From Takakia lepidozioides (lineage: Eukaryota; Plantae; Bryophyta), in the NCBI GenBank assembly GCA_030704615.1, contig CM060732.1, forward strand, positions 46,934,001 to 46,998,000: DNA of 64,000 nucleotides, given 5' to 3'. The notes under the pieces were generated by a model that saw only the letters and a list, made by a program, of their open reading frames with translations, ran no database searches and was not told the DNA's origin. The translations under genes and the position numbers were made by a program. This document shows positions 1 to 58,825 of the stretch, in pieces (positions within the stretch are counted from its first letter, which is position 1; every line of letters starts with the position of its first letter).

Positions 1-3766
<3,766 letters not shown>

Positions 3767-8123: not shown

Positions 8124-8126
8124 CAC

Positions 8127-13145: not shown

Positions 13146-16100
13146 GTGGCCCAGCCGGGAGGAGGTATAGGCCACTGCGAGTCTTGTTGGACTCGGGAGC
13201 ACAGCCATTGATGTTGGGAAGAGCAACAATTGCAGGCTTGGGCCTTACAAAGGCGCATTTGGAGCCTTCCCTTTCCAAATTCAAACATCTTTGGGCGGTT
13301 CAGAGAAGGCACGAGGGATTACATGCCATGAGCTCTTCATTCGATTACAGCCGGATCATCCTACGGACGGCTCAGTCATGAGAGCTAAAGCCATTGTTAC
13401 GGACGCGATGTCTTATGATGTGCTTGTTGGTGGGGCGGTGTTATACCCCATGGGATTCACTCTGGATTTTTGGGAGGAAACGACATCCTACAGGCCGGAA
13501 TGGCAGTCAGGAGATGGCCGACGTGCACTGCTCCCAATGCGGTTTATTGGGAATGTAGCGGTGGATCATAGGAACATGATGTCCACATTGGCTGCATTCT
13601 CAGGGGTGGTGGCTTGGGGTGGTGAGCTCTTGGGGGGAAATAGCCATGCAAATGATAGGCCATCACCTGATGATGACAAACAATTGGCATACAAGGCTGA
13701 TTTGCTTCCTCATGTGTCTGTGCATAGTCCACTGTGGGGTACGGTTGGGAATTTGCATCGAGTAGCAGGCGAGTGTGTGCACCAAGCATGGCAGGAGGCC
13801 TTTCCATTGGTGAGTGAGGGGAGTTCAGTGACATCACCTGGACCTCCTGAGTTAGCTCCTTTGGACACAGTGCCCATTATCTGGCAACCACCTGACTCAG
13901 GGATTTGCTTGCTAGACTTGTTTGGCGGCATGAGCACTGGGCTTGCAGGAGTATTGCAAGCAGGGATTAAAGTACGCAAGTACTTGTATGTGGAGAAGGA
14001 TGAGATAGCTCGACGTATTTCTATGCGCCACATCGCCTTGCTCACACACCAATATCCTGAGTTGTTGCCTCTCTCAGCAGTTCAAGGGTATCAAAAGGCC
14101 TTGTCAGCAGACATTACCTTGCAGGGGGCGGATGATTTGGACCGGCATGGTTCCATTGACTTGGTGAGAGCTGGATGGCCTTGCCAAGAACACTCTCCTG
14201 CAGGTCATGGGAATGGCTTGCATGATGCACGATCGCATTTGTTTTGGGAGATGTTGCGATTGTTGCGTGACTTGCAGGTGAGGCAAGTGCAACCTCCAGC
14301 TTACATCCTGGAGAATGTGCCTCTCATGGGGGATTCTTGGGCCAAGGTTATGACCAGTGTGCATTAGATCCGGTCATGGATTGGACCAGCTGTATTGTTG
14401 GATGCAGCTGCAGTGGGTTCACAGGCACATAGGCCTAGGTTGTGGTGGACCAATCTTGCACCACCAGAGTTGCTCAAGAGAGCCTATGATTCCATTCAAC
14501 GGCCACCCAACCTCACGGTTGAGGGCATTTTGGACCAAGGAAGGCAACCACAGAGGGTGCGACATGATGACCGTCCACCTCTAGCAGTGGTAAATCGAGT
14601 GGGGCAGCCACGTGCAGCCTTGCCTTTGCTCATGAGCTTTCCCTCATCTCATGCTTTTAGAGACAATGGTCCTGGGTTGATTGGGACAGTGTGCATTGGT
14701 GGAGCCCAATGCGGATGAGCGAGAGCGGGCAATGGGATTTGCCACGGGCACTACAGCTATGCCAGCTCTGTCAGAGGCATCACGACGCCAGGTGTTGGGT
14801 CAGGCCATGGATCTCAATTGCTTGACATGGGTCATTGGCTTGTGCATGGCTGAGCAACAGAGATTGCAAGCATTAGCGGCTACTTCTGCACTTCCATTGG
14901 ATATTGCACCATCTCTGCCAACCGGGACGGTGGAGGCAGTGAGTGGGGGCGAGCACAGGATCATGGGGTGCAAACACCCATGGCAGATGTGGGATGAGAT
15001 GCGCAAAGAGAGAGTCATTGGATCTCTCAAGCAGCAGTATGAGGAGTGGGGAGAGCCATGGACTGAGGATCAGTTGGAGGCCAAGGTGACCAAGGTTTTT
15101 GAAGAGGTTGAGAATGTTTCTTGCTCAGATGATGTTCTCAAGGTGGCTATGGCGGAGCAAGTGGAGGCTACGCCATAGTCAGATTGGGCGGACAAGGCCC
15201 AAGAGGTTGCTATCTAGCAACCAAAGGATTTGTCTCCTACCTCCAAGCCTGGTGTACCTAAGGTTGCAGTCACTGAGGACAATTGGGAGCCAGATGTTGG
15301 ACCTACAATCACCAGAGGAGAGAAACGGAGGATCCAGCGATTTCTAAGGGCTTATAGAAATTGCTTTGCCTTCAGTTTGAAGGGTCAGGAGATTCGTATT
15401 GATTTGGCAAGTGACACGCCAATCTTTCGAAGGCCCTATAGGTATAGTGATATGGAAAGGTCTTTGATCCAGTCATGGGCTATGGAGTTGTTCGAAGCTG
15501 GATTGGTGGAGTTGTCAGGCGGGGAGTATGCCTCGGCAACGGTGATGCCAGCTAAGAAGGATATCTATGGCAATTGGACAGAAAGGAGGATGTGTGGGGA
15601 TTACCGTCCTCTGAACCGTTAGACTAAGTCCGATAGATATGCCATGCCAACTCCAGAGGAGATCTTTGATGCCATTGGGCATGCAAAGGTGTTTAGCACA
15701 TTGGACTTGCGATCCGGTTATCACCAGTTGCCAATCAAAGAGGCTGACAAGCAAAAGACGGCATTCTGGGGGATTTACCAACATGGGAAGGATTGCTTGT
15801 ACCAATGGCGGTTCCTACCGTTTGGGTTGAAGAATGCTCCTGTAGAGTTTCAGAGGGTTTGGATAGGATTCTTGCAGGGCTAGACTTCGCCCGGTGCTAC
15901 ATTGATGATATCATCATCTTTAGTGCCTCGGTTGAGGAGCATGAGAAACACCTTAAGGTGGTGTTTGAGCGTTTGAGGGCGCATGGATTGAAACTGCACC
16001 CTGGAAAGTGCAAGTTCTTCCACGATCAGATTGAGTATTTGGGCCACATGATATACCCTGGAGGATTGGGTATTCAAAAGACGAAGGTGGAGTCCAATTG
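13146..16100 (+). mobile_element. E1: internal fragment of DNMT-Gypsy retroelement (PR-DNMT-RT), same subfamily as E3
   Basis: LDSGAQP, LDLFGGMSTG, GWPCQEHS, ILENVP, HRPRLWWTN, TAGCAACCA at 15215, YIDD; closely similar to 38560-41530; many stops and frameshifts; no termini. Confidence 0.92.
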
Positions 16101-17990
16101 CTCCTGGGCGTGGGTCAGTACCTGCATCATGGCAGGTTTCCAAAACATTCATGATTTTGAAATTGCGACGATGTCCAACACAGAATAGGAGAAAATTATA
16201 CCTGATGCCACCAAGTCATGACATTGAGCCAGTCGTTCATTTTGTCGTCTGTTGGCTCGATGGGAAAGTGGTACAGCAGCTTCGTGTTTGTATGGCCGTT
16301 CCAGATTCGCAGCCACCTCGTCTGCAGCCACCTCACATCGGTCAGACAAGAACTCAAACATAAGAATCGCGAGAAGTCACAAAACAAGAATAAACACATG
16401 CTTACCTTCTCCGCCGGCTCAACACAGGACACTGCGATGTGATGAAGTTTCTCCATGGACATTTCCGGTTTCATGGGTCTGGAGTAATGCAGTCCTATCT
16501 CCGCCAGGAACTCGGCACCAAGACCAGGGTCAGCGATTGCAACTTGCTTAACAAGTTTGGACCTGTACTTGGTCCGGGATTGCTTCCCTGCCTGCACAAT
16601 ATGACTCTCTATCGACGCGTCCGCCTTGTTGGGGGCATCATTCCCAAAGAACTGCCTTTTGGCATAGGCCAAGTCATCCCTGATGTTCGTCTGCATTCCC
16701 ATACCCAGCAGATACAGTCAGGCCACGGATCCCTGCAACAAATAACATTAAATTGATACTGAAATTTGAGATGAACCTCACCGAATAGAGGATCTCCACC
16801 ATGGCGTCCAGTGTTGGTCGGTACCAGGTGCGATCTGCTTTCGCTAGGGACTTCCTGTACAGCTCGGGATCGAGGGACTTTTGGAAGTCCGTCAGCGGAG
16901 CTGTCACCACTTCTTGCACTCTGTAGAGCGTATGTGCCAGATGAGTTTCCACGAAGGCCCTCTTTGTTACCCTACCATGGAGAAAAAAAACAACATGAAA
17001 ATATGATTTCGGCACAGCAATCCAATTTCCAGTTCATAGAGTGCATGACAGTGGTGAACATTGCCTATTTCGGCGCCGCAATAGGCAGTACACAAGGATG
17101 TAATTGTATACTTACATATTTATATCCGCCATGGCACCCTTCAACAGTCCTCTGTCCCTGACGTCCACCGCATCTGTGTTTTCTGAAATTGACTGCAAAC
17201 CCAATATCTCCGCTTCCAGTCTCCCTAGGGGTTTTACTGGCGAAGCCATGGGCTCCTTCTGCTTTCTCGGCTTCCAAACTCTAGGTGGGCTTTTCGGAGG
17301 CGATATCTGAGGTGTTGAATGAGGACTCGTCTGCCTCGATGCACTTCCACCTTGTGAGCGCAGCACCCGGGCAAGAGTATCCAAAGTTGACTGTGTTGCC
17401 TCGCCCCCCTGCGATCCCTCCCCAGCTCCCATGTCAAACAAACAGGAAAACATGAGACACTGCACGCCAAAACAAAGGTGTAAAAGGAATATTGCGTATG
17501 GAGTGCTTCACATCCGCGAAGCACGAATCTCTCACTGGTGGGCGATCCGAGTCTCCGGATAACGAGGTCTGCATTTCATGCATGAGACGGAGCTTAAGTC
17601 GTGTCGTCGGCGGCTTCCCAAAATCCCGCGTCCTCCTCTTTGCCGGAGTCGCCTGACCTTCCACAAACTCTATGCTACCACTATGCCGCATAAGGAGAGG
17701 AAACGCAGGAGAATGTCACTGCAGAAGGGCAAGGAGCGAGAGACCGAAGCGGTGGAACATGCAACCACTATGCACGAGCAGATGCGTAAGCAGCCACGTC
17801 TCCCGAAGCGTTGCCACCGTCCACCACTTTCTGCCGTATGGGTGATGAAGAGATGTGACCCCTGACACGTTCGCACGGATGAAGTCGACTGGAACACGAC
17901 TCGTGCCAGTTCCAGCCACCAGTGTATGACGGTTTATCCGAATTGCGGCACCGAAATACCTTCCGTTCACCGGATGCTGTTCCCGGAGCA
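16100..17990 (-). CDS. Putative multi-exon gene of unknown function, divergent from the MULE transposase
   Basis: Consecutive minus-strand ORFs 17716-18066, 17112-17465, 16674-17015 and 16196-16702 separated by short T-rich intron-like gaps; no recognised domain. Confidence 0.35.
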
Positions 17991-18750
17991 GCCGGCATTG
18001 AATGAAATATCCGCACATCATGAAACCCAACCGCCATGAAAATCCCCTGCATATGACATTCAACAATCAGGTCGGTACGTTTCATCAGCGGACGGATGAA
18101 TTTCGGCGCCGAAATTCATCCTATTTAAGTGCTTTCATACACAAACTTACAAATGTCGGCGCCGCAATTCATCGCTTCCCAAGTCCTCATTCGTCATGAG
18201 CAAACCTGTCAGTGGGATATCGGAGCCGGAATTAATTCCGGGACAACGGAAACGGTTGCACTTCGGCACATTTCATCCATATTTCGGCGCCGAAATTCAT
18301 CCAGAGCGAAGACTAAATCGGCACGATGCTATGCTTTGCCGCCATCATTGCCCCTGACGGATGTTGTCCATGCCTGTTGGACTTGCCATTTCTGGACATT
18401 TAACTATAATTTCGGCGCCGAAATTATACTTTATGTGCGGCAACGTCCCGTGCGAAAAAGACCACTTAATGGATACTGTCGGTTTCAAATGAAAAAAAAC
18501 CGGCTAAAATGCAATTAATTTTGACAGAAGTGGTTTAATATGCCGATTTCTCCATTAAATGCAGAATATTCCTGTTATATTCGTCGGAACGGGGTATTTC
18601 CAACGATTTACGGAAAATTATCATCCAAAAGCAAAAAGTAAGTGCCGGGTTTGGACGAATTTCGGCGCCGAAATTCATCCGTCGCATAGAAAATGTAATA
18701 TTAGAGTTACTCATTGCGGACAGTAAGGATGAATTTCGGCGCCGAAATTG
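17060..18750. repeat. Array of palindromes GAATTTCGGCGCCGAAATTC, left part
   Basis: Perfect 28-bp palindrome at 18094-18121; further copies near 17065, 17940, 18280, 18410, 18657, 18730. Confidence 0.9.
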
Positions 18751-18757
18751 ATCCATT

Positions 18758-19107
18758 TGTCAAGTTAAATAAGCACAGTGTGAAAACAGCTAGCATAAAA
18801 CTAGTTGTTTGTATTTAACACTTGGATTTAGGTCAAGTGTTAAATCAGGTGTCAAGTTTAGTTTGACACCTGGTCCGTCTTATCTTCACCAGAGCGGCAG
18901 TCGCGCGGCTCATCTCTCTCGAGTTGAGCCTGCGCGACCGAGCTCTTGCAGCGTTTAGGACTGAGTGTGCTTATGATGGGAGTATAGGTTGTTGTGGGGT
19001 GGAGTCCCCATAGCTTGGGGTGCCCCTGGCTCGACTTCTATTCTAAAGAGTGATGGTTTTGGTTGTCATGTTTTGTGTCAACAGTGTGTTCTTAGCTTTT
19101 CTTATCA
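18758..19107 (+). repeat. E2 repeat A1 (350 bp, TG...CA)
   Basis: Matches 30639-30988 with two differences seen. Confidence 0.96.
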
Positions 19108-19123
19108 CTCGAGAGAGATGAGC
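19108..19123 (+). promoter_or_regulatory. E2 self-complementary primer-binding site
   Basis: CTCGAGAGAGATGAGC directly after A1 is the reverse complement of GCTCATCTCTCTCGAG at 18908-18923; no TGG-type tRNA PBS. Confidence 0.8.
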
Positions 19124-19441: not shown

Positions 19442-19543
19442 GTGGCTTCCTCTGGTGGAGGTGCTGCTGCTGCACCTGCCGGAGAAAAGGAGGAAGCGAA
19501 GGAGGAGTCTGATGATGACATGGGTTTCAGTCTTTTCGACTAA
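19442..19543 (+). pseudogene. Captured C-terminal fragment of a 60S acidic ribosomal P protein (P1/P2 type)
   Basis: Reads VASSGGGAAAAPAGEKEEAKEESDDDMGFSLFD-stop (TAA 19541-19543); no in-frame ATG upstream, so absent from the ORF track. Confidence 0.88.
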
Positions 19544-21711
19544 GCTTGGGATGTAGTGTTGCAGCGCATCCGATGGTCTTTCGCAGTTGACAGTAGGTCG
19601 AGCCACAGCCGAATGGAAATGAGGTTGCTGATAAACCCAATTGGAGAAGGTGCAGTTGATGTTATCTCAACTGCAGGTGGCTGCTGAGCATTACTTAACA
19701 GCCGTTTTATACCTGCGCTGGTGCTGGTAGAGGCTAGGAAGAAGGAGTGAGCTGGAAGATTCCCGCCCTTCTTCAAGCATGCTAGGCTCAGGGTGGAAGG
19801 TTCAACTTACGGCGGGCTGCTGGAGAGCTAAGAGGTCTGCCACCTATCAGCCTCTGCTCTAGCCTCTGCTCTGCCTATTCTGTGTGAGTGGATTGTTCCA
19901 CCGAGGGTAAAGCGCTGGCTGGGATTTGGTGACCAGCGATATTCCGCCATCACGAGTGGGACTGGCTTCCTTGGGTTAGTTCCGATTTGCAAGGCAGCAA
20001 GTCTGCATTGTTTGCTGTCTCTCGCAATGGCCATTTGCTGCAGGGTTGGAAGTTCAAGGTCAGGCCCTCAGGTTCCCTTTTCGGGCCAATCGTTGCTGAC
20101 ATTCCGGAAAATCCATACTATGCTATCAGGGTTTTCTGCTTAGTAATAGGCCAGGTGAACCCTTCTCTCGTGAACGGCCTACACACCAACCCCTTCCTGC
20201 ATTGGTTCCTTCAGGCACCAGTTACCTTCGCCAATTTGATTCCAGGGAGTGGGTGTGGAAAGACAAGAAACACAGCCCGTTTTTCAAGTACATTGTCAAA
20301 TTGGACTATAGCCAGCCACTATGAAGGAGTAGTTGTGGGCTGGTTGATGTGAGGTTGTCTAGCTGTACATTGCGAGGAAGCAAGCTTTCTTATCTTAGCA
20401 AATGGATGGACAGGGTCAGGCTAGATTTTCTAGCAAGTGCGTAAGCTGCTGTCCAGCAAGGAAAAGCTGATCAGCAGTAGAAGCATGAGATGCGGCGTGT
20501 GTGACTTGAGATAGATGTACACAGGGAAGGACCAGCCGCGTAGCCTGCTTTGCGATCAGGTCTTGCATCAGGTCTAGGCGACAGTGGCGGCATTAATGTT
20601 TGTGAGACGGGGTGATCTCATATATTAACATTGCAGCCTAGTGAAGGAAGACCAGGTGAGGCTCTACATACATGACCAGCGGTGCTTTGATCCGGAGTTG
20701 CAGTTAGAAATTGTGAGACAAAAAGGAAAAAACATTGTAGTACATTTGACCTTTCGGCCACCAGCAGGTGCAGGTCCAATTATATCACTTGGTCCTTGAA
20801 GTGGTACACCAGGCCGAGCTTCTCCCTTTTGATTTTGCGTTCAGTTGGGAGCCCGCTATCAGTTCTCAAGATGGGGCAGCTTCATCCCATCGCCTTGGTT
20901 CTGTGCATGTCCCTGGTCATGGGGATGTAATAACCACCCTAAGCCAGTTTAGAGTGGTGTTTGAGGTCCTGGAGAGCTTGAGCGTTTACAGCACCAGCGT
21001 ATACTGTAACCCTCTCTGCTATGGCGATCTTCAGGCTGCTCTTGGGGTATATGCCAATGGTCGATGAAGGTATTAGCACCACCTTGGAAATCACAAATTG
21101 AACGTGATGGTCTTATTGCTGTGGTTGATATGTATTTGCCCAGTACATGAATGGTTGCGGAAAGCCATCCTGGTTGTGGTCACTCTGACAGGGCAGTAGA
21201 CATGGGCTCTCATACAACAACGATAAGATGGCATTGATAGCAGCAGCTTCAACAAGGTGTTCTCGTTTTGAAAATCTGGCATACCAATGAGGACATTACC
21301 TTTATCATGGTAATTCCACTGTGGAGAGATTGAGTTAAGAATCTAAGGAATTCTTAGGGAACCAGGGAACAGGGAACCTGCAGTGAATCCCAACAGACGT
21401 GGGAACAGTTTTTAATGGTGAGAACATTTTGGTGTTAAAAAAAAAAAAAAAAAAACCTTTTGATCTAATTTAAAGGATTTAGAGCCTGGTTGGTCATATC
21501 TTTGTCAAATGAGCTCCGTTTGACTCAGTTTTTGAGGGGATAGCTGCAGAAAGGGGAAATCTACCTACCTAGACCTGATTTTTGTTTTTAGGACTCTGCT
21601 AAAAATCTATGGAATGTTTAGAGTGTGAGTGTGCCATGAAAGATCCACAATTCTGTTTCTAGAACTTGTGCTGGTCTATATGATAGACAAATCTGTGGAT
21701 GTACTCCTTGT

Positions 21712-22461
21712 ATGGCTGGGGGAAATGAGGACGTAATTGAAGGGCAGGTCTCTTCTCTTAGCCTGTGCACACAAGGGGACAAGATCTATGTTTCCCAAGG
21801 AACTCAGACTGATTTGAGTGGAGAACAGTTGGACGAGTTGATTGCATACTGGGAGTCAGGCATTAGCAGTAGACAACAGACTGCTGTAGTTGGCATTGAG
21901 GGCCTCAATATCGCCTTGGACAGTCAGAACTCTGTTGGAGCCAGCAGTTCTGCAGCTGTAGGTGAAATACCAAAGTGGGTGAAAGCTAGGCTTGGAACAC
22001 AGCCAAAGACAGCTCCGGGGACCAAGGTGTTCAGCCACAAGGCCGTGGTGTACTGGAGCAGAGGAGCAGGAGCTGCACAAGTTTGTGCAATTAGACAGTG
22101 TTGCAGACGGACACGCTCTGCACAAGGCAACCACGAGCGGGGGTTCATTAGCGAGGACAAGTTTGTTCTGTTTGAAGGCGATGCAGTCATCCGCAATGAA
22201 GACACCCGCAACCGTCTCAAAGCTTTCGAGTTGAGAGACTATCAGACCCTACCTTTGTTTTCTTTAGTGTTCAGTGAGCGGGAGATAGGGGAATACTGCT
22301 TTGTCTCTACCTGGCAGAAAGAGGAGGAGGGTTGGTTAGAGCGAGCTACTGTAGCTTGGGACAAGGTTAGTGGCAGGTTTCTGGACATAGATATACCTCC
22401 TACACCTTACCATCAAGCAGAGCGAGGCACTTTGAGAGAAGTCTGGAAGTTGATAGCATAG
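21712..22461 (+). CDS. Extra 249-aa ORF of unknown function in the E2 leader
   Basis: Uninterrupted ATG-started ORF upstream of gag; no counterpart seen in the E4 leader. Confidence 0.5.
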   Translation: MAGGNEDVIEGQVSSLSLCTQGDKIYVSQGTQTDLSGEQLDELIAYWESGISSRQQTAVVGIEGLNIALDSQNSVGASSSAAVGEIPKWVKARLGTQPKTAPGTKVFSHKAVVYWSRGAGAAQVCAIRQCCRRTRSAQGNHERGFISEDKFVLFEGDAVIRNEDTRNRLKAFELRDYQTLPLFSLVFSEREIGEYCFVSTWQKEEEGWLERATVAWDKVSGRFLDIDIPPTPYHQAERGTLREVWKLIA

Positions 22462-22980: not shown

Positions 22981-25900
22981 GTGGAGGAGGTGCACATTGT
23001 GAGTGTCATTACGGAGTTACCCAAGGGTTTTGAGGGGAGTACGGCTACAAGCAGTGATAGTGAGAGTGGGTTCACAAGACAAGGTATTCGGTTCAGACCA
23101 CCTTCACCGCCACCCTCAACTACTGTAGAGTCAGACACAGACTCGGAGGCTTCATCAACAGGTGTGCACTTTCATTCGCCATTGTTGTGGGACGACATGG
23201 AGGAGATGTATGGAGCTACCAAGGGGCCTCGTAGGTACTCTGGAGCTGTGGGCACAATCGAGTTGGATGACTTTATCCAGGAGTTCGACAGCTGGTGTGA
23301 TTTGCAGCAGATGCGCAATCCACAGCTATTCACCCCATTCATGGCGTGGAAGGGACTGTTCCAGCATTTGGAAGGCCCGCCTATGGACGATTACCACGAG
23401 TTCAGGCGAGGACATGAAGCAGAGATTGAGGAGTGGAGGATGTATTGGTCACCTGACTACGTCTCCATTACTCGAGGCACGACGCGACCAGTAGCTGCAT
23501 CAGTACCAATAGCTCCCACTGCCAGCACTAGTAGTGGAGCAAGTAGTGCTGGTACTTCTGTAGGTGGTACCAGTTCAAAAGGTGCTACTACTTCTCCTGC
23601 CACGACTACAACACATGTGCCTAGATTCAACCCGGTGGTGGAGTTCTTCCAGGAGTTGCGGAGGAACTACCAAGGTGTACGGACAGAGAAGCTGCGAAGT
23701 TTGCAAGACTTCCAGCGCAAACCCAGTGAGAGCCTGCGAGAGGCGTACACTCGTATGAGGCGCTTGATAAGTGTGACCCAAGGGGTTACTGAAGCTCAGG
23801 CAATCCAGTTTTGGTATGGAATTCTGGACAAGGAGCTCAAGAGAAGGGTGCGAGATGCAACCCTGTTACAAGCAGCCCAACCCACATTAGCAGATGTGTT
23901 TCTGCTGGCTGAGCGGATTGAGCTCAACATGGTGGAGGAGCGAGTTGTTACAATTGGATTTGGCAAGGACATGCCTGTACGGGGCACAGCTGTCAGCCCA
24001 CAAGCACAAGGGACTGCCCAACAGCGTGGTCAGGGGGGCAAGGTTGCCCAGCCCAAGTTCCATGGAGCTTACAGGGGACCTCAGGTGCAGAGGCCCGTGG
24101 CATCTTTTGCAGGCCAACAGCAACCAGGGGTGATATGTTGGACATGTGGAGGACCCCATGTCAAGAGAGATTGCCCAGAGAGTGGCAGAAGCCGGCACAA
24201 GCACAGCCTGCACAGTTGCAGTGTGGGCATTGTGGCAAGTATGGGCATGGAGATGCCCAGTGTTATGACTTGCATCCTGAGTTGCGCCCAGGCCAGTTCC
24301 AAGGGAACAATGGTGGCCGGGGGCGAGGTGGACCAGCCCAAAGAGGACGAGGTGGTCGGGCACGAGGTGCAGGCCAAGGCAAGCTCCACATGGCCAAGGA
24401 CGCGGAGGTCAGGGTGTTGACCAAGGCATGGCCAATCGGCTTCAGCAGCTAGAGTAGAGGCTCGCTGCCATGGCTATAGCTCAGGCGATACCGGCTCCCA
24501 GGCAGGATGGCCCACCTCCCGCTCCTGAGGGAGGAGATATGGGAGGCATGGGATTTATGTGCGGAGCAGCACTACCACTAGAGCAGGTGGAGTCTGCTGC
24601 AGCCGTGACTCGAGGAGCAGCACGAGTTCCTGAGCCACGAGGTGCAGAGGTGGAGTTGGATCCACAACGTGGGGAGGCAAGCCGTCAGGCGAGGCTGCCT
24701 CAGTCATTCACCTTGGCGGAGACAGTGTCAACGCCATCCATGGCACCTAGTTCTCGCCCGACTGTTACCGAGGCGGAGGTTACTATGCCATTGGGGAGAG
24801 CTACACGTGCAGCACTGACACCTGCTACCAAGGCTAGTGCAGCCGGTGTGTTATTGGGGGCAGCCATCTCTGGCAACCATGATTGCGACGCCGGGGGTGA
24901 GACCAGCTGCAGTGTTCAGACTAGCAGCAACTCTCTGTGAGAGTGGGGAGGTCACTTCATCTTCTACGGAGTTAGTGGAAGGTATAGTGGCAGAGGGATC
25001 CTCGGATTTGAGGGTCAAGACTGCCACGGCTGCGCCATGGCAAGTTGCAGCTGCCAGGTTGACGGAGCTGCCAGCTAGGCCAGCCATTGAGCGCGCCATG
25101 GTGACACCTGGAGTTGTCTTGTTAGACAACCAGGGAGGCATTTTCACTTTGAGTGGACCGGCAGGCAAGAAGTACCGGCCACTGCGGGTCTTGTTGGACT
25201 CAGGAGCTCAGCCACTGATGTTGGGCAGAGCTGCTATTGCAAGTTTGGGCCTCATGGAGGCGGATATGGAGCCTTGTCCTTTCCAGATACAGACATCTCT
25301 GGGAGGATCAGAGCAGGCTCGCGGCATGACACGGCATCAGTTGGCTATTAGACTGCAGCCGGATCATCCTGTAGATGGCTCAGTGATGCGAGCCAAGGCC
25401 ATTGTGACAGACGCGGTCTCTTACGATGTCCTCGTTGGTGGGGCAGTGTTATACCCCATGGGCTTCACCCTGGATTTCTGGGAGGAGTCAGCATCCTACA
25501 GGCCTGGATGGCAGTCAGGGGATGGTTGCCGTGCACAGCTCCCTGTGACATTCATTGGGGGTATTGCAGCTGCCCAGCGGGGCAAGATGCCAACACTAGC
25601 CGCCTTCACAGTTGCCGTTAGTTGGCCTGGAGAGTTGCTGGAAGGCAATGCCCATGCAGAGGATGTGCCACCTCCAGCAGAGCAGGATGACATGCATGGT
25701 ACGGCGGAGTTGCCTGCCATGGTTGCTCACACTCCGTTGTGGGGTACGAGCAAGGATTTGCAGCAAGCTGCAGATGGACGGGTGCAACAAGCTTGGGAAG
25801 AAGCTTTTGTACCGTCAGGAGAGGAGGAGAGTGCGGTGATTGCACCAGGGCCACCTCAGTTGTCGCCATTGGACACCACACCTCTTGTGTGGCAGCGGCC

Positions 25901-27158
25901 GGATGAAGGCATTTGCCTTCTGGACTTGTTTGGCGGGATCAGCACCGGATTGGCTGCTGTGCTACAGGCAGGTGTGCGGGTAAGGCGTTACCTGTATGTG
26001 GAGAGGGATGAGACTGCACGACGCGTCTCACTGCGCCATGTGGCTCAGTTGGTACAGCAGTACCCTGACTTGTTGCCTGTGTCTGCAGTTCGTGGATACC
26101 AACAAGCCTTGCCAGCAGACATTTCCTTGTTGGGGGCGCAAGATTTGGAGCAGGTTGGCTCCATTGATCTGATAGTGGCAGGTTGGCCCTGCCAAGGGCA
26201 TTCATCAGCCGGGCATGGCAATGGATTGCGAGACTCGAGGACGGGTCTGTTTTGGGAGATGGTGCGGATTTTGCGCTGCTTGCAGCTTCATCAAGCTGTA
26301 TCTCCAGCATACATCTTGGAGAATGTACCACTGATGGGTGATTCTCCGGCCAGGGTGATGGCCAGTGTGCATCAAGTCCGGTCGTGGCTTGGGTCAGCAG
26401 TGTTGCTGGATGCAGCTGCAGTGGGGTCACGGGCTCATCGTCCACGACTATGGTGGACTAACTTGATGCCACCCGCACTGCTCAAGCGTGCATTTGATGG
26501 GGTGCAGCGGCCAGCACACCTCACCGTGGATGGCATTTTGGACACAGGAAGGCAGTCTCAACGTGTGAGACACGATGACCGTTCGCCTTTGGCAGTGGTC
26601 AACAGGGTGGGTCAACCACGAGCAGCATTACCTACACTGCTCAGCTTCCCAGGATCCCATGCTTTTCGGGATGGTGGACCTGGCCTCCTGTGGGATGCTC
26701 AGTTGCAGCAGTTAGTGGAGCCTAATGCCGACGAGCGAGAGCGGGCTATGGGGTTTTCCACTGGGACCACGGCGGTGCCTTCTCTTTCTGAGGCATCACG
26801 TCGTCAGGTGTTGGGGCAAGCAATGGATCTCAATTGCTTGACCTGGATTGTCAGCTTGGCTATGGCTGAGCAACGTAGAGTGCGGAGTGCACTTCCCTTG
26901 ACGGTCTCTCTGCCTACCGAGACGGTACAGGCAGCGAGTGGGGGCGAGCCGGTGAGGACCACGAGGTGTAGACATCCATGGCACATGTGGGAGGTGCTCG
27001 AGGTTCAGAGGGAGTTGGCAGCGAAGGCAGCTGTGATGGATGAGGTTGGGGATTCTTCTCGGGATGAGGAGGTTCTCAATGATGAGATGATGGGGCAGGA
27101 TGAGGCCTTGTCATTGACTGAGCAGGAAAGGGGTACTGCTCAAGAGGTTGCAGCATAG
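22981..27158 (+). pseudogene. E2 Gag-protease-DNMT polyprotein region (frameshifts near 24190, 24380, 24860; stop near 24454)
   Basis: Gag with zinc knuckles CWTCGGPHVKRDC and CGHCGKYGHGDAQC; aspartic protease LLDSGAQP; DNMT motifs; lesions are not shared with E4. Confidence 0.9.
25911..26840 (+). CDS. C5-cytosine DNA methyltransferase domain (DNMT3-like) within E2, uninterrupted
   Basis: Motif I LDLFGGISTG, II YVERD, IV AGWPCQGHS, VI ILENVP, VIII AHRPRLWWTN, IX ERERAMGF, X RRQVLGQAM in canonical order. Confidence 0.93.
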
Positions 27159-27164
27159 CAACCA
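27156..27164 (+). promoter_or_regulatory. Putative stop-codon readthrough signal TAG-CAA-CCA
   Basis: In-frame TAG followed by CARYYA; identical 9-mer in all four copies; frame continues into RT. Confidence 0.75.
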
Positions 27165-30100
27165 CGGGACGCGTCCTCTACCTCTAAGCCCACTGGACTT
27201 AAGGTTGCAGTTACGGAGGACAATTGGGAGCCTGACATTGGACCCATTGTCACCGGAGGAGAGAGACGACGTATACGGCGGTTCCTGAGGGCTTATAGGA
27301 ATTGCTTTGCCTTCAGTTTGAAGGACTTGGGAGCACTGAAGGGTCAAGAGATCCGTATTGAGTTGGCCACTGACACGCCAATCTTTCGGAGACCCTATAG
27401 ATACAGTGACATGGAGAGGTTTTGATTCAGATGAGGACTCAAGATCTCTGGGAGGCAGGTTTGGTGGAGCTCTCTGGTGGAGAGTATGCTTCAGCCACAG
27501 TGATGCCAGCTAAGAAGGATGTCTATGGCAATTGGACGGAGAGACGTATGTGCGGTGATTACCGGCCTGTAAATCGTCAGACCAAGTCCGATAGGTATGC
27601 CATGCCAACACCAGAGGAGATCTTTGATGCCATTGGGCATTCCAAGGTCTTTAGCACGTTGGATTTACGATCCGGATATCACCAGTTGCCGATCAAGGAG
27701 GCGGATAAGCAAAAGACGGCATTCTGGGGGATCAATGAGCACGGGAAGGATTGCCTATACCAGTGGCGGTTCTTACCATTTGGGCTTAAAAACGCTCCCG
27801 CTGAGTTTCAAAGAGTCATGGACAGGATTCTAGCAGGGGTGGAGTTTGCTCGGTGCTACATAGATGACATCATCATCTTTAGTGCTACGGTGGAGGAGCA
27901 TGAGAGACACCTTCAGGGGGTATTTGAGCGCTTGAGGACGCACGGATTGAAGTTACATCCGGGCAAGTGCAAGTTTTTCCACAACCAGATTGAGTATCTG
28001 GGTCACATGATATATCCTGGAGGATTGGGGGTACAGCAGACTAAGGTAGAGTCCATTGCACAGGTTCCACGCCCCACGGATGTGAGCCGAGTTCGAGCTT
28101 TCATGGGGTTAGCAAACTATTACAGACGGTTTGTTAAGGGATTTAGTGCCATTGCAAAGGCTCTAACCAAGCTGACCAAGGTGGACCAGGAGTGGCAGTG
28201 GGAAGATGAGCAAGAACAAGCTTTTCAAGAGCTCAAGGCGAGGTTGACCTCGGCGCCCATCTTGAGACGACCTATCAGGGGGCGTCCTTTTCAGCTGCAT
28301 ACAGATTGGAGCATGCTGGGGCTTGGAGCGGTGCTCACACAGGTGGATGATGAGGGAAGAGAGTTCGTAGTGGCTTATGCTAGCCGCTCGAACAATGCTG
28401 CAGAGTCTAAGTATAGCTCATATGAGGGAGAATGCTTAGCTGCAGTGTGGGCCGTGGCACACTTCAGGTGCTATTTATACGGCAATCTCTTCACCCTTGT
28501 CACGGATCACCAACCACTCAAGTGGTTGATGGAGTCAGACAAGCTTACGGGGAAGCTTGCACGGTGGGCACTCATCCTTCAAGAGTATGACTTTCAGGTG
28601 GTGCATCGACCGGGTTTGGTCAATCGAAATGCAGATGGGTTGAGTCGCAATCCATGCACGAGCCAACAGGATGACACTGGAGCTCGGTGGCATGGTGAGA
28701 CGGACGAGGAGATGGTGCCCGGATGGCATGCATCTGCATTTCTGTGTATCTTGGCAGCGGAAGGCCAGGTTGGACCTACAACAGGGATGACTGTAGATCA
28801 AGTGTCTGAGGACCCTGAGGCCAGCAATGAGCAGGGTGGCGCCAAAGATATACATGAGGATTCAGTTGTGTTGGACTACCTCCGCAGTGGAGACACGGCA
28901 GCCACTATGACTGCCAAGGAGAGGGATCGGATCCTACAACGAGCCAAGAGGTTCAGGTGGGAGGGGACACACCTGCTCCGAGTGTGGGAGGATGGTCGAG
29001 TGAGGATTGTGCCTCACCCAACACAGCGGGCACGGTTAGTGCGGCATGCCCATGAGGAGTTGGGGCATTTTGGGGTGCGACGCACTCATAGTCTACTGCA
29101 GGGGCAGTATTGGTGGCGTGGTATGCACACAGAGGTGCAACAATTTGTGGCTAGGTGCATGGTGTGTGACAGGGTGCGTGCTTCATTCAACGCCCCTACT
29201 CCACAATTGCACCCTCTTCCGATCATGGGATTGGGCTACAGGTGGAGTCTTGACTTCGCAGGGCCGTTGCCACTGACCATGCGCCACAACAAGTACGTGT
29301 TGGTGATGGTGGAGCACTTCTCCAAGTGGATTGAATTGGTTCCATTGCCTGATAAGGCTAGTGAGGGAGCTGCGTATGCATTCTTGGATTGTGTGCTTAG
29401 CCGATTCGGTGCTCCAGCTGAGGTACTCACGGACCAAGGGAGAGAGTTCTTGGGGGAGTTTCAGGCTTTGTGTGACAAGGCCTTGATAGACCACCGCACC
29501 ACTTCTCGGGATCATCCTGAGGCCGATGGCTTGGCAGAGAGAGTTGTTCAGACAGTAAAGAGGGGTTTGCGCAAGTATGGCTTGCAGAAGGGACACCTAG
29601 GAGATTGGGACCTTCAGTTACCCTGGTTAGCCATGGGCTACAGGTTCAGCAAGCAAGCATCACTTGCCTCCTTCTCACCATACTTTCTTCTCTTTGGCCG
29701 AGAGCCGGATTTGCCTACATCCATTCGCAGAGAAGCTGCTACAGTTCTTAACCTTGACGATCCGGACGTGTGGGCACGTGCATGTGAGCAGCGTGCAGAG
29801 TTGTTCAAGAGAGTCATGCCCATGGCTTTCGAGAACCTTGCCATTGCACAACACCGTGATACGTTGAGGTATGCTACCATACGTGGTGGGGGCTATCGTC
29901 CTGGGGTTCGGAGATTCAACCCTGGTGACTATGTCTATCTGCAGCAGACTGCTCCTACGACCCTGGATGTGACTGCAGGACGTGTTATTTTGAGGGTTCG
30001 AGAGGTCTTGCCCTCAGGCGTCTTGGTCTTGGAGGGTCGGGATGGCATAACTTGGAAGGACCATGTGCGTAATTGTGCGCCATGTCACCTTCCGAATGTC

Positions 30101-30292
30101 GATGGCAGGATTGACCCAAACCTGGCAGTGGTATCTGCAGGTTTGAGGTGCATGTTGTGTGGGTCTGCTAAAGGGGCAGCCACCATGCTGGTGTGTGATC
30201 GATGCTCTAGAGGTTGGCATATGGGATGCTTGACTCCACCTCTTGAGATGGTTCCGGATGGGGATTGGTTATGTCCACAATGCATTGGATAG
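27159..30292 (+). CDS. E2 Pol: RT, RNase H, DDE integrase, C-terminal PHD finger (one frameshift near 27420)
   Basis: LDLRSGYHQ, PFGLKNAP, YIDD; TDWS...GAVL, DHQPL; HEELGH...CMVC, LDFAGP, TDQGREF, AERVV; PHD at 30149-30283 (CMLC...CDRC...HMGC...WLCPQC). Confidence 0.95.
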
Positions 30293-30540: not shown

Positions 30541-30550
30541 AGGGGGGCGA
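30541..30550 (+). promoter_or_regulatory. E2 polypurine tract
   Basis: AGGGGGGCGA directly before B1; CACCAGCTAGGGGGGCGAT is shared by E2, E3 and E4. Confidence 0.85.
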
Positions 30551-30551
30551 T

Positions 30552-31074
30552 TGTGGTAGACTACTTTATTGTGCATATATGTGTGGTGTGGTTTGGACAG
30601 CGATGTAGTTGTGTAGCGATATGTATGCGCACGACAGCTGTCAAGTTAAATAAGCACAGTGTGAAAACAGCTAGCATAAAACTAGTTGTTTGTATTTAAC
30701 ACTTGGATTTAGGTCAAGTGTTAAATCAGGTGTCAAGTTTAGTTTGACACCTGGTCCGTCTTATCTTCACGAGAGCGGCAGTCGCGCGGCTCATCTCTCT
30801 CGAGATGAGCCTGCGCGACCGAGCTCTTGCATCGTTTAGGACTGAGTGTGCTTATGATGGGAGTATAGGTTGTTGTGGGGTGGAGTCCCCATAGCTTGGG
30901 GTGCCCCTGGCTCGACTTCTATTCTAAAGAGTGATGGTTTTGGTTGTCATGTTTTGTGTCAACAGTGTGTTCTTAGCTTTTCTTATCATTGTGGTAGACT
31001 ACTTTATTGTGCATATATGTGTGGTGTGGTTTGGACAGCGATGTAGTTGTGTAGCGATATGTATGCGCACGACA
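30552..31074 (+). repeat. E2 3' terminal block: B1 30552-30636, GC spacer, A2 30639-30988, T, B2 30990-31074
   Basis: B copies identical (85 bp, TG...CA); B1/A2 junction is the palindrome GACAGCTGTC. Confidence 0.95.
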
Positions 31075-31109
31075 CATTTCAAAGAAAAATAAATATTGGA
31101 GGGAAGGCA

Positions 31110-32010
31110 TTGGATGAATTTCGGCGCCGAAATCCGGCGCTAAAACCCTGAAAAGAATTTGGAGGGATGAAGTCGGCTGAATTTCGGCGCCGAAATTCAT
31201 TGCTCGCGAAGGAAAAAAAAATTTCTGGAGGACTTCGGATGAATTTCGGCGCCGAAATTCATTGCTCGCAAAGGAAAATAAAAAAATTCGGGAGGACTTC
31301 GGATGAATTTCGGCGCCGAAATTCATTGCTCGCGAAGGAAAATAAAAAATATCTCCTGGACTTGGAATGAATTTCGGCGCCGAAATTCAATGCTCGCGAA
31401 GGAAAAAAATAAAATCGGGAGGATTTTGGTTGAATTTCGGCGCCGAAATTCATTGCTCTCGAAGAAAAAGGAAAATTAAAATGGAGTACTTGGATGAGAT
31501 TCAGCGCCAAAGTTCATCTGTCGCAAAGAAAAAAAAAACAGAAAGGACTTCCGATGAATTCTGGCACCGAAATCCATCCGCAGGGCAGCAGAATTAGGGT
31601 CGGAAAAGGAGATGAAGAATGAATTTCGGCGCCGAAATACATCCATTCTGCCGAATCAGGATTACTGTCATTCGGAAGTCGGCACCGATATCCGGACACG
31701 TGGTGAATCACGACTGTAATCAGGAACACATTCATCCGTATTTTGGCATCTAAATTCAACCCATATGTGCAGATACAATTTAATGAAGAAGAAGTTCATC
31801 CGAATTTCGGCACCGAAATCCATCCGTTGGGTGTTTGGTCAGTTTAATGAGGTAAACAAATTACGATTTCTGTTGCCAGAATTCATCCCTTGGCTTCCAA
31901 AGCTGTTACATGACAGAGATGTTCATCCAGATTTCGGTGCCGAAATTCATGGGAAGGCCTGATTTATTGTACCCCAAGTGGTTGTACATTACAATTCAGG
32001 CACCAAATAT
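31110..32010. repeat. Array of palindromes GAATTTCGGCGCCGAAATTC, right part, about 65-bp period
   Basis: Near-perfect copies from 31116 to 31640 with related A-rich linkers, then decayed variants (CGGCACCG, CGGTGCCG). Confidence 0.9.
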
Positions 32011-32198
32011 CCGATGTGAACTTGCTGTTTTCGTCCGTTTTTTTAACGTACGTTACACACCTTCATCTTTACGTGCACTGATCACCCATCATGTTGGATA
32101 CGGAATCCTCCAGAAAATCATTTGTGTTATTAGGTAGGACACACTCTTCTCATTGCAGGACTTCGCTGCGGAGCGTACCGAGAGGTCCCGTCTTCAAA

Positions 32199-35100
32199 AT
32201 GGACTCCCGTGTTTGGGTCAACGTGTACTTCCATCCTGATTCTCTGAAAGCTAAAATACCCTGCGACCAAGGATTTGCGATTGTCACTGAACAGTACTTG
32301 TGTGTGAAGTTCGGGCTTCGCCCTGGAACGGTGTTTTTGGAAGAGGAGACGAAGGATGCTTATGGAAATTTTGTGGAAAGTGCCGTCATTCTGCATGCAG
32401 ATTTCGGAAAAGGCAAAGAGTGGCGGCTCCCAGCTTCTGAATCCATCCGGTACAGTGCCATTGGTGAAATCGTGCCTAAAGAGTTCCCACGCTGGAACTT
32501 GGTTGATCCTCCTTCCACAAGAGGGTCTGGCGTGCAAGATGTGAAGGATGTGGGCACCTCTTCACAAGCAGAGAAGCCCAAACATGTGAAAAGGGAAATC
32601 CAGGAAAACAGGGAAACAGTCGTCCAGGACTTATCCAGTGACGATGAAGACTGTATGGTCCTTCCATCGTATGTTTCGAAGTCGTCCGTCACTAGGAGTG
32701 TTCAGCATACACCGTCCGACTCAACTTCCGTCCGCTCAGTAATCGACATATTGCGGAGGATGAAGACAACGGGTTCCCGCTCCAGTGACCTTCTTAGGCT
32801 TGATTACGACAAAACTCCAATCCATTCTGTGGAAACTTTGCCTGATGTTGTGGATGGGAATGCTATCTACGAGTTCCCTCCAGTGCCGGCAGGCGCAGGC
32901 CCAGACGGCATGCTCGCAGGAATGAACAGGAAACATGACGGCCACCCTTGGTGTGTCACCAAAACTTCATCGTCCAACCTGGGTGATGGAGTTCGAGTGA
33001 GATATGTATTGTGTGCTGGGCATCTTAAATGTTTCTCGAGCACATGTTACCATTACACTAGCAAAGGCACCAGGAATGAGACTGACTGGATTGGCAATTC
33101 GTCGACCCCATTTTGGCCTCAAGGTAGAGTTCCTGCAGGGACGTTCAAGTGTGCCCATTGCAACGCAGCCCCTACGTGCATGGCAGTGTGCAACGCCAAG
33201 CAGTACTACATCGGGACCGTCGGCCCAGCGTGCACCAGAGCATGCCCAGGATATTATCAAGGAGGAGGTGAGGTTGAGGCCGGGTGCAAAACCAAAGCAG
33301 ATACAGCTCGCATCGGCACATAGGATTGCAATTGGCAGAATAATGTCGGAGGACGGAAGCACAAGAGAGAAGCTGGGCGAGGGGGACATGAAGGACCTGC
33401 TGGAAGCTGTCTCCCATGTGTGCAGCCCCAATGTCAGGAACCACATTGTCAGCTGCAAGAAACGAATCGGAAGAGGATCAGACATGCACTCCATCTTGGA
33501 AGTGAAGCGCACATGCGGCTACGACTTCATCCAAGGCAGCTTCTTTCCTGGTCAAGGCTCGGAGACGGACAGGTGCTTCATATTTAAGATGTCAACGTGC
33601 GGACCGGGGAGCGGCGTCGATTTGGTGAAGTGGATGACCAGTGGAGACCTCTCAAATTGTTGGGTCATGTTTGACCACATCCGGCGAATTACCAACCACG
33701 ATTGGGTGACAATGGGGGCACATGTATACGACCCACATTGCAGAAAGTTGATGACCATTGCTATCTGCGAAATGAAGGGAGAAGACACAGATTCGGAGTT
33801 GCATATGTGGCGCGGAATTAATGAGCAAATGGCGAGAGCCAAGTTGCCCCCTCCCGATTTTAGGGGCTTCATGGCTGACAATGCCCAGGCAAACTGGGCT
33901 GCAGTTAGGAGGGTATATGGGGACACCCAAAGACTCCAATGGAAGGAAAGGAGAGATCTTGCGGGTTCCACTTCATGCAGAGTTTGACGCAAAACACGAA
34001 AAGGTTCGTGGCGTCACGCCACCGGCAGGATCATATCAGTATGTGCCTAGCGTGGAAAAATGCGAATTCCATCGACGAGGCGGAGACCGAGTTTGCAACC
34101 ATACGCGCCTGGTGGGTGTCTTCAGGGGCAGTGGATGTGAAAGATCAGCCAGAACTGCAAACGTGGCTTGCGTGGTGGCATTATAGATTCTGCCAGTTTG
34201 GAGACTACATGAGACAGGTAAGACATTTCTGTACTTGACAATTGTTCTGTTTTGTGCTTGGACATTCTCCACAATCAGTGACATATCTAATTTCCATCAA
34301 CAGGACATGAGCTTGGAGGATGACACGGATATGCCGACGACGAACATGGCCGAATCGGTGCACTCTTCCTGGCGTGCTTCCTCTGCAGCACATCTCGTTG
34401 ACATGTTGACAGCAACAACAGAAGATATTGTGAGGGCCATCATGCAACAATCTCATTACTACCAGTTTCTGGGAGGAAAGCAATGGGGTATCGGACCAGA
34501 CAGGCAGGAGATGCTGATGAGGGCGGCGCATCGTTCGACCGATCCCAGAAAATGGACTGCTGCATTGCGGGAAACTATAAGGTCAACGCCGTTACACAGT
34601 CGGGGAAACTGCCTGGAGGGCGATGTCCGCAGCCGGCCGGTGAAGAGAAGAATTGAGGACATGCCCGGAGGGGATGGGGATTCATGGAGATCAGATATGA
34701 ACATCCGCACTCAACCTCGGGGCGCAACGATGTTGCGTCCCACGCCTCCACGAAGCAGGACTCGTACCCCCTCTCCTGCAGCATCCATGGAATCGCTGCC
34801 AGACTCGGGACAACATGCCGAGGATGGGCATGTTGCTCCTGTTTTCGTTACCCAATACAACATTCCAATCGTGGAGCAAGATGTGTCGGCCTCGCAGTGG
34901 AGAACTGCACGGACCCGTCCGACATTTCGTGGCAAATGTTGTGCTGTTCGTGTCGACACCAACCAGAGATGCAATGAGATGATTCGGAGGAGCCCGCAGG
35001 GCGGTGTGCCTGCCCCTTGCTTCACAGGGAGATTTGTGTGCGCAAAGTTTGTGGAGGCCACACTGAAGGAGTTTTGGTTCTGCAGGCACGACATCATGTC

Positions 35101-35730
35101 GTGTGTGTTCGGCAAGCCCAAGTATGGTGTACAAGGCATGCCTGAACCACCGGCAGTCTGGCATGTGGAAGTGGTACAGATCTTACCCTGGAGGAGCCAG
35201 ACGCTCTAGGAAGTGCAGGGTTTCGACTGGTGGAGAGGACAGACGTTCCACGAAATCCAATTCCCAATCGTCATCCTCCTCCCACGAGAAGCTCTTCGCC
35301 CCGCATACCGGTGGGTGACCCCGCAGCTTGGCCCACCCATCGGTGGGGTAAACTGAAAAGACGGCGGCCACCAACAAAGGCGAACGACACCAGGATGGCC
35401 AACGCTCTTGCAATGCCCTGCATAGTGCAAGGTTGCAGGGATGTTCCTCACCCCGGGATAGGGCGCATATTTCAGTTGTCAACAGCCGGGTCTGCTGCGC
35501 GCAGTGTCGTGTATGCAATCACGGTTTCACAGTACCCAGCTTGCAACTGTGAGGACTTCCTTGTTATGGAATCGAGGAATGCAGCATACGTCCCCTGCAA
35601 ACACCTTTATTACATTTTTATGAAGCGCATGAGTTGCATATCCGCAGTGGACGTCTTTATCCATGCTCCAACACTGAGTTTCAACGAGCTGCACAAGGCC
35701 CTACGGCAGGATACTGGTCGGACTGCTTGA
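32199..35730 (+). pseudogene. Mutator-like (MULE) DDE transposase with N-terminal Cys-rich domain and C-terminal SWIM finger; intron 34218-34303; frameshifts
   Basis: WVMFDH, GFMADNAQANWAAVRRVYG, CGFHF (CxxH), TTNMAESVHS, SWIM CNCEDF...CKHL; GT-AG intron joins MRQ/DMS in frame. Confidence 0.82.
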
Positions 35731-58809: not shown

Positions 58810-58825
58810 GCTCATCTTTCTCGAG
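58810..58825 (-). promoter_or_regulatory. E4 self-complementary primer-binding site
   Basis: CTCGAGAAAGATGAGC after A1 pairs with GCTCATCTTTCTCGAG (58981-58996, minus strand). Confidence 0.8.

Follow-up and report, generated by a model that had tools for sequence, protein, structure and literature searches.

KnitGypsy-Dnmt3 of the alga Klebsormidium nitens, a retrotransposon with a DNMT3-like DNA methyltransferase (DNMT) domain, is the closest described system to the element reported here (de Mendoza et al. 2018, PMC5890265; statements from this and the other cited papers extend to the portions of their text available to us). The present element lies in a 64,000-nucleotide stretch of the Takakia lepidozioides assembly GCA_030704615.1 (contig CM060732.1, positions 46,934,001 to 46,998,000, forward strand), which is called the window below and which carries four copies, E1 to E4. 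Similar to the Takakia element, KnitGypsy-Dnmt3 possesses Gypsy domains, a DNMT3-like domain that is not permuted and evolves under purifying selection (Ka/Ks < 0.2), and, according to the legend of Fig. 4c, DIRS-like repeats arranged as A-coding-B-A-B; this likeness is drawn from the published description. KnitGypsy-Dnmt3 was found in one alga and carries its DNMT in the Pol open reading frame (ORF), whereas the present element resides in a land plant and has a conserved stop codon between a Gag-protease-DNMT frame and the reverse transcriptase (RT). DNMT, RT, and RNase H thus share one frame, but they would share one ORF only if the stop, which is present in all four copies, is read through.

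Other retrotransposon-borne C5-methyltransferases include those of SymbioDIRS-Dnmt3, whose domains methylate CG in yeast (PMC5890265), and of EpiLTRs (bioRxiv 10.64898/2026.05.21.726589). Unlike the Takakia element, which has an rve integrase and 4-bp target duplications, DIRS elements integrate by a tyrosine recombinase, while the DNMTs of EpiLTRs are sister to DNMT4 and are accompanied by a DAM domain and a chromodomain. The available text of PMC5890265 contains no analysis of readthrough, self-priming, target duplication, or the repeat junction, and its main text never mentions "Marchantia". Two later papers use "streptophytes" for the KnitGypsy kind, citing the 2018 paper, and their supplementary trees may hold bryophyte sequences. 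No mention of such an element occurs in the available parts of PMC11982613, PMC12885004, and PMC10952607, and neither "PHD" nor "methyltransferase" occurs in the main text of the Gypsy survey PMC6317226. In the open literature searched, with subscription papers and Repbase outside the search, we found no description of long terminal repeat (LTR) elements bearing a DNMT in land plants or chlorophytes, of the putative readthrough layout, or of the junction, and no split-repeat Gypsy element besides that of PMC5890265. The kind of element is therefore known, and its land-plant members and presumed readthrough layout are apparently new within this literature.

The methyltransferase domain, its copies, and its relatives

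In E2, the domain extends over 25911-26840 (+) as an open frame of 310 codons inside a 779-codon ORF (24819-27158), which also encodes the protease motif LLDSG. Its motifs follow each other unpermuted as I (LDLFGG), IV (GWPCQG), VI (ENV), VIII (AHRPRLWWTN), IX (ERERAMGF), and X (RQVLGQAM), in C5-methyltransferase numbering. Pfam profile search gave PF00145 matches above the gathering score in all four copies (E 1.5e-12 to 7.2e-12), each of which retains the catalytic PCQ and ENV. The nearest PDB sequences are DNMT3A (E 1e-10), followed by HhaI (7e-4) and DRM2 (1e-2). An AlphaFold model of the domain, built from an 81-row alignment, reached a pLDDT of 96.8, and all rows listed by Foldseek for this model were DNMT3A, DNMT3B, or DNMT3C (top E 2.3e-19, TM 0.74). 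The catalytic C94 and E137 as well as R177/R179 are at least 90% conserved over 81-118 relatives. Judged from sequence and modelled structure, the domain is a DNMT3-like, non-permuted C5-methyltransferase situated between the protease and the RT of a Gypsy element. A preliminary description of this DNA had proposed such a domain, unpermuted unlike that of DRM, in frame with the E2 protease inside a Gag-protease polyprotein; the motif order, the PDB and Foldseek matches, the shared ORF, and the same placement in relatives all bear this out, and the profile search which it suggested returned a significant match in every copy.

By tblastn, the other three domains lie at 13903-14824 (+), 39307-40236 (+), and 53107-52178 (-), with 75-93% identity, and agree within 2 nt with the positions put forward earlier. 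The copies fall into two subfamilies, E1/E3 (91% nucleotide identity) and E2/E4 (86%), with about 70-80% identity between them, so that the earlier claim of four copies from two diverged subfamilies with the domain at the same position also stands. The DNMT is unbroken in E2 only; it is interrupted by one stop and a frameshift in E1, by three stops in E3, and by two stops in E4. Over its whole coding region, none of the window copies is intact.

Upstream of the domain, E2 carries a Gag region (23197-24750, +), which was recognized by tblastn with the relative P0005 and contains copy-specific frameshifts and one stop (Retrotrans_gag E 9e-4, below the cut-off), and an aspartic protease (25101-25553, +; DSG at 25197-25205), which shares its frame with the DNMT (Asp_protease_2 E 0.012, likewise below its cut-off). 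Downstream, RT, RNase H, integrase (H2C2, rve), and a PHD finger occupy 27159-30292 (+), with one copy-specific frameshift near the RT start. The Gypsy order of RT, RNase H, and integrase with a DDE (rve) core was confirmed by Pfam. No chromodomain was matched in Pfam; the integrase C-terminus carries the PHD finger instead (30149-30283, +; PF00628, E 1.1e-10), whose nearest solved fingers are those of CHD4, PHF12, KDM5A/B, and ATXR5. A tyrosine recombinase was matched in none of the 33 ORFs scanned. At three of the breaks in E2, a public run contains copies with a different sequence, which marks those breaks as copy-specific. E1 is a fragment (13146-16101, +) running from protease and DNMT to the RT start, and E3 (37566-44540, +), whose 5' end was not found, runs from the Gag tail through protease and DNMT to the PHD finger. 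E4 (48184-59142, -) has both ends and a partly deleted RNase H between RT and integrase-PHD.

Selection on the domain was assessed by pairwise Nei-Gojobori dN/dS in the four between-subfamily pairs (314-318 codons for the DNMT). The DNMT gave 0.115-0.134 (bootstrap intervals 0.07-0.19), close to the protease (0.09-0.15) and above RT (0.05-0.08), while the protease-DNMT linker gave 0.26-0.35 and the tail between DNMT and stop 0.70-0.81. Within subfamilies, DNMT values were higher (0.22 and 0.31), as would be expected with post-insertion decay added. The domain is under purifying selection between subfamilies, and neutral evolution, which had been named beforehand as an outcome that would count against it, was not seen.

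The element is not special to the Takakia genome. Searching with the DNMT region yielded 65 proteins among 7,998 candidates scored, the named ones coming from Marchantia polymorpha and Calypogeia fissa (about 70% identity in their gene sets) and two Sphagnum species (49-57%), and a representative protein library gave 248 clusters at E < 1e-30. Among 184 related metagenome stretches, 80 loci were kept. The DNMT precedes RT in 32 of these (type I) and is flanked by RNase H and integrase in 42 (type II), while six are unresolved. The type II order RT-RNase H-DNMT-integrase-PHD also occurs in 38 of the 40 long proteins first fetched; examples are found within loci L035-L080 and in proteins P0083, P0191, P0381, and P0411. 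Names were looked up for 30 representatives; named type I members belong to liverworts or Closterium and named type II members to the chlorophytes Scenedesmus, Cymbomonas, Monoraphidium, and Haematococcus. Relatives with the domain at the same position as in the window include those of liverworts, of peat moss, and of Closterium. None of the named relatives came from a vascular plant or from Klebsormidium, which is weak evidence given the limits on candidates and lengths. Symbiodinium-type matches were weak (E 8e-4 and 5e-11), and viral contigs gave 15 weak partial matches (best E 1e-15).

Phylogenetic trees of DNMT and RT split alike. In an IQ-TREE tree of 37 of the 95 RT rows, 12 type I rows lie on one side of a 100/99 branch, in agreement with FastTree on all 95 rows (0.84), and in a FastTree tree of 177 DNMT rows, 60 of the 62 type I rows fall together (0.87). 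The trees, which hold element-borne domains only, are midpoint-rooted and give no direction for the move of the domain.

A conserved stop codon after the methyltransferase

The Gag-protease-DNMT frame ends at TAG CAA CCA in all four copies (27156-27164 in E2; at 15215 in E1, 40627 in E3, and 51862 in E4), and the RT frame resumes in the same phase. The stop is kept although the tail before it drifts almost neutrally. Of the 32 type I loci, the 24 with a readable RT entry were used for a stop count, and in 22 of them the last in-frame stop before RT has the form TAR-CAR-YY(A/C), a pattern seen at 58 of 7,076 TAA/TAG triplets in the background. Four of the 22 carry strict CARYYA and 18 carry CAACCC, the latter from one near-identical family; the remaining two readable loci are L018 (TAG TAG CCA) and L027 (frameshifted after TAG CAACCC). 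In the eight loci lacking a readable RT entry, a pattern search finds the motif in four and misses it in four, two of which end right after the DNMT. The contexts vary (CAACCA, CAGTTA, CAATCA, CAACCC), so that the motif is kept even though the second residue that it encodes is not constant.

Other features around the stop point the same way. Locus L016 has 1,369 open codons over Gag, protease, and DNMT, a single TAG CAG TTA, and then 1,047 open codons to the PHD finger. Divergence in the 77 codons downstream of the stop is biased to third positions, and the first in-frame ATG past the stop in E2 comes only at codon 84, beyond conserved RT-entry residues. The Marchantia and Calypogeia proteins P0003, P0005, P0006, and P0012 end 88-90 residues past the DNMT, which equals the distance to the stop in the CAACCC family. 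According to previous work, CAR YYA after UAG is the readthrough consensus of tobacco mosaic virus (TMV), where UAA leaks as well; readthrough in this context reached 32% when assayed transiently and 6-10% in stable plants (PMC2754532). As in TMV-type UAG CAR YYA (PMC2754532, PMC2194720) and in gag-pol of murine leukemia virus, an in-frame stop here would separate an abundant upstream protein from a scarce downstream one; the difference is that protease and methyltransferase both stand upstream of it, and that we infer readthrough from sequence. Taken together, TAG CAA CCA is probably read through to make RT-RNase H-integrase-PHD. If so, synthesis of the DNMT would be coupled to that of Gag, and the particle would take up many copies of it, in contrast to a domain carried in Pol.

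Several observations pull in the other direction. In 18 of the 24 readable loci the context is CAR YYC, and the CAACCC family has an ATG three codons past the stop, which permits reinitiation. Moreover, readthrough of a stop between gag and pol does not have to depend on the local context, as Tca2 shows (PMC2194720). Several relatives (P0393, P0084, and P0340) have the same domain order without a stop, as single ORFs of 2,100-2,400 aa, which indicates that a Gag-level DNMT supply is not needed throughout the clade; these proteins are also a candidate intermediate state.

Splicing with the TAG as acceptor is disfavoured, as the 40 nt upstream contain 33-40% pyrimidine and 15-20% T and the stop is TAA in eight of the 24 loci, and no splice joint at the stop was listed in the run contigs. 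One contig of run X6 passes the stop unspliced, from which we draw no conclusion, the RNA origin of that run being a guess and DNA a possible source. Variation of at least 2% was not listed at 27156-27164 in four runs, which is not counted as support, since 32 of 301 sites are variable and a nine-site blank has a chance of about 1 in 3. A stop common to the integrase of E3 and E4 was also considered as a second recoding site and rejected, because E2 has CAG there in a CHG context and parallel deamination is likelier.

Split terminal repeats and the internal junction

E2 and E4 share the structure A-internal-B-A-B, beginning with TG, ending with CA, and flanked by 4-bp target duplications. In E2, the duplications CATT (18754-18757 and 31075-31078, +) enclose repeat A1 (18758-19107, 350 nt), the internal region, B1 (30551-30636, ending CACGACA), A2 (30639-30988), and B2 (30989-31074), which is identical to B1. 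In E4, flanked by GAGT, the order on the minus strand is A1 (59142-58826), Gag, protease, and the other coding domains, B1 (48856-48680), A2 (48677-48361), and B2 (48360-48184). The locus L023 is complete with the same structure, and E3 shows it at its 3' end (B1 44029-44114, A2 44117-44456, B2 44457-44540, +). Duplications of 4 bp occur in all four elements with both ends readable, namely E2, E4, L023, and the internally rearranged L019. The element therefore has the TG...CA ends, short target duplication, and polypurine tract of a canonical LTR retrotransposon, but instead of one full LTR per end it has A alone at the 5' end and B-A-B at the 3' end. As a side observation, E2 is embedded in a short tandem repeat array, whose unit occurs on both sides (18728-18750 and 31080-31577).

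A G-rich polypurine tract adjoins B1 (30541-30550, + in E2) and a primer-binding site (PBS) follows A1 (19108-19123, +), an arrangement from which reverse transcription should give a conventional cDNA with LTRs of the form B+A. The PBS has no tRNA-type TGG start and is complementary to a 16-nt segment within A itself (18908-18923, +, in A1), a reading made by inspection of the element. Complementarity of 15-16 nt was found in four of the five elements tested (E2, E4, L023, and L016), in three unrelated sequences and with the partner about 150-175 nt into A, where shuffled sequences reached maxima of 11-12. The segment within A is thus likely to serve as a self-primer. Tf1/Sushi and Tcn1 chromoviruses are self-priming in a similar way, lacking a tRNA primer site and having a PBS complementary to the LTR (PMC6317226, Neumann et al. 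2019), whereas the Takakia element has a PHD finger in place of a chromodomain, split repeats, and a DNMT.

The A2|B2 junction in E2 and E4 joins the end of A to the start of B with nothing gained or lost, as a circle with two LTRs (2-LTR circle) would contain. The B|A junction forms the palindrome GACA-GC-TGTC (30633-30642, + in E2), conserved as CGACA-GC-TGTC, and a staggered cut after each CA of this palindrome would leave two integrase-ready ends. Downstream of the PHD finger, GACA-G(C/T)-TGTC was found in 17 of 39 loci (4/8 type I and 13/31 type II), including 13 of the 16 type II loci in which the downstream DNA extends for at least 2.3 kb; shuffling gave an expectation of 0.3, and there was none in 280 kb upstream. 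The junction is kept even where RT identity is only about 40-45%. Circle intermediates and a DDE enzyme cutting the end-to-end junction are also features of IS3/IS30-type elements. Foamy-virus integrase cleaves palindromic 2-LTR circle junctions (PMC1180852), which resembles the cut proposed here; the foamy-virus cut falls at the LTR-LTR junction, while the one proposed here would fall at a fixed site inside the LTR, so that the true A|B junction stays in the inserted copy. On balance, we lean towards integration via a circle opened inside one LTR.

Three results sit uneasily with this scheme. The PBS complementarity of L004 is only 9 nt. The mirror form A-B-A-internal-B, which a circle with two equal junctions predicts, was not clearly seen. 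Finally, B1 and B2 of E4 differ at 7 of 177 sites and A1 and A2 at 2 of 317 (Fisher p 0.012), a contrast not foreseen by the simple model. This divergence (48184-48856, -) possibly reflects two templates or gene conversion. The loci L009 and L013 end at B1, which fits alternative opening, B-B recombination, and assembly collapse equally, and the 5' end of L009 is rearranged. At L019:13300-13330 and L020:5690-5715, an A-to-B junction keeps 8 nt of the PBS and seven additional bases, as an imprecise circle junction might.

The A repeats also bear on age. Divergence between them is limited to 3 of 350 sites in E2 and to 2 of 317 in E4, and these insertions are therefore young. Summed contig depth in run X1 was 9,700-38,300 over coding bins, including the DNMT, vs 10-27 over part of the leader, and in run X5, from another study, 180-1,564 vs 3-9; summed contig depth is not a copy number and is read only as high copy with the DNMT retained. 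Recent amplification, as previously proposed, is supported by this depth and the near-identical A repeats. The leader of E2 also contains a 273-codon ORF (21640-22461, +), which has no Pfam or ESM Atlas match and no counterpart in E4 or the 80 related loci. Summed contig depth is high over this ORF and low over 19534-21121, suggesting that the ORF is common to many copies and the preceding stretch nearly private to E2.

Possible roles of the methyltransferase

With a probability of roughly 55%, we favour the view that the DNMT is supplied at Gag level, packaged in the particle, and methylates new cDNA before insertion. Most ribosomes would stop after Gag-protease-DNMT, and a minority would pass TAG CAA CCA to make RT-RNase H-integrase-PHD. 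The protease would then free the DNMT inside the particle, where self-primed reverse transcription (16 nt of A pairing with the PBS), together with priming at the polypurine tract, would yield a normal [BA]-internal-[BA] cDNA. Joining of the cDNA ends into a 2-LTR circle would account for the exact A|B junction, and the integrase may open this circle at the CA-GC-TG palindrome inside one LTR and insert A-internal-B-A-B with a 4-bp duplication. The DNMT would deposit 5-methylcytosine on the cDNA, for which self-like marking, protection, and pre-silencing that spares the host are candidate benefits. Methylation in the particle is favoured because of the conserved catalytic residues, the selection on the domain, and its position. 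The preliminary description, which had suggested that the element may methylate its own cDNA or insertion site, is partly supported as a whole; two features that shape this mechanism, the split terminal repeats and the conserved stop that follows the DNMT, had escaped it.

There is also evidence that weakens the case for cDNA methylation. CpG observed/expected (o/e) is 0.43-0.55 in the elements, compared with 0.47 in a nearby Copia fragment and 0.39 in window positions 1-9000, and private transitions occur at 19% of CG and 18% of CHG sites vs 9% at CHH and A/T, which is a host-silencing pattern. CpG depletion was accordingly discarded as a signal of self-methylation; it does not discriminate, the elements looking like DNA under host CG/CHG methylation. 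In addition, a yeast assay of the Gypsy DNMT from K. nitens detected no methylation, which its authors call inconclusive, as DNMT3B also failed, while two Symbiodinium retrotransposon DNMT3s methylated CG in the same organism (PMC5890265).

Alternatively, the DNMT might be active at or after insertion, either with the integration complex or free in the nucleus, methylating the new copy and its flanks while the PHD finger picks the chromatin. Many PHD fingers of the CHD4, PHF12, KDM5, and ATXR5 type, to which the integrase PHD is nearest, read H3 tails unmethylated at K4, and the ADD domain of DNMT3A reads the same mark. The chlorophyte-type relatives, whose DNMT is flanked by RNase H and integrase and belongs to one protein with the PHD finger (42/80 loci and 38/40 long proteins), would suit this explanation. 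However, a stop separates the DNMT from integrase and PHD in the window family, and we regard action at the insertion site as unlikely there, though the strongest of the competing explanations.

More doubtful still is a role similar to restriction-modification, in which the DNMT marks the palindromic junction and so shields one circle junction and the retained genomic junction from cleavage by the integrase that the element encodes. The B1|A2 junction is intact in every window copy with a readable 3' end, 16 of the 17 junctions listed have a CG at a distance of 5 nt from the cut end despite a CpG o/e of about 0.5, and DNMT and junction occur together in both architectural types. Such shielding would also explain why A-internal-B-A-B is the sole form clearly seen. 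Against this, all loci were picked for their DNMT, so that the co-occurrence is not independent; the spacer varies (GC, GT), and the CG may be a mere integrase contact.

A comparably slim chance is given to a fold kept for binding rather than DNA methylation, for example as a nucleic-acid chaperone, in RNA methylation, or as a decoy for partners of host DNMTs. The negative yeast result for the K. nitens domain (PMC5890265), a Gag-level amount suited to a structural role, and the lack of element-specific CpG loss are compatible with it, but C94, E137, and R177/R179 are conserved over the relatives at the level given above, and the Symbiodinium retrotransposon DNMT3s do methylate CG (PMC5890265). 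Lastly, a host DNMT3 fragment recently captured and passively carried, or an assembly artefact, might be suspected from the broken DNMT in three of the four window copies, but is already contradicted by the between-subfamily dN/dS of about 0.12, the unchanged placement of the domain in liverwort, peat-moss, and Closterium relatives, the matching DNMT and RT trees, and coverage of the region in independent runs, and can be dismissed.

As for the rest of the window, an exon of an ENTH/ANTH clathrin-assembly gene lies at 62545-63951 (+). Among the best 120 of its 1,847 matches, all named relatives are land plants, with Sphagnum first (60-66% identity), then Ginkgo, Ceratodon, and liverworts. The host is, on the strength of this exon, probably a moss, and its earlier placement among embryophytes holds. 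A Copia-type RT fragment is present at 9238-10271 (-; RVT_2, E 9e-44), and four ORFs of 194-413 codons without Pfam matches lie at 32082-35730 (+), where CpG o/e (0.84) is well above that of the neighbours; these possibly belong to another mobile element. ARAGORN called tRNAs at 8142-8214 and 58014-58111 (-), one with an unreadable anticodon and one in the E4 leader repeat, both of which are probably spurious.

What DNMTs carried by retrotransposons do has been an open question since 2018, the examples coming from dinoflagellates and algae. The place of the present enzyme ahead of a putative leaky stop predicts an abundant, particle-packaged methyltransferase acting on cDNA, while the conservation of the internal junction suggests that integration follows a route unlike the textbook linear-cDNA path. 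As a tentative extension, which we would not yet call probable, a clade spanning the green plants may replicate via a 2-LTR circle opened inside the LTR, with its own DNMT3 marking that DNA and possibly shielding the retained junction; the streptophyte DNMT would have moved ahead of RT, the land-plant branch would have gained capsid stoichiometry through a leaky stop, and bryophyte genomes, including that of Marchantia, would hold many such DNMT3 genes capable of host-independent writing. Bryophyte gene sets list many of these element proteins as if they were ordinary genes, which can inflate DNMT counts. Since close relatives occur in Marchantia polymorpha, for which genetics and methylomes exist, the proposed role is directly testable.

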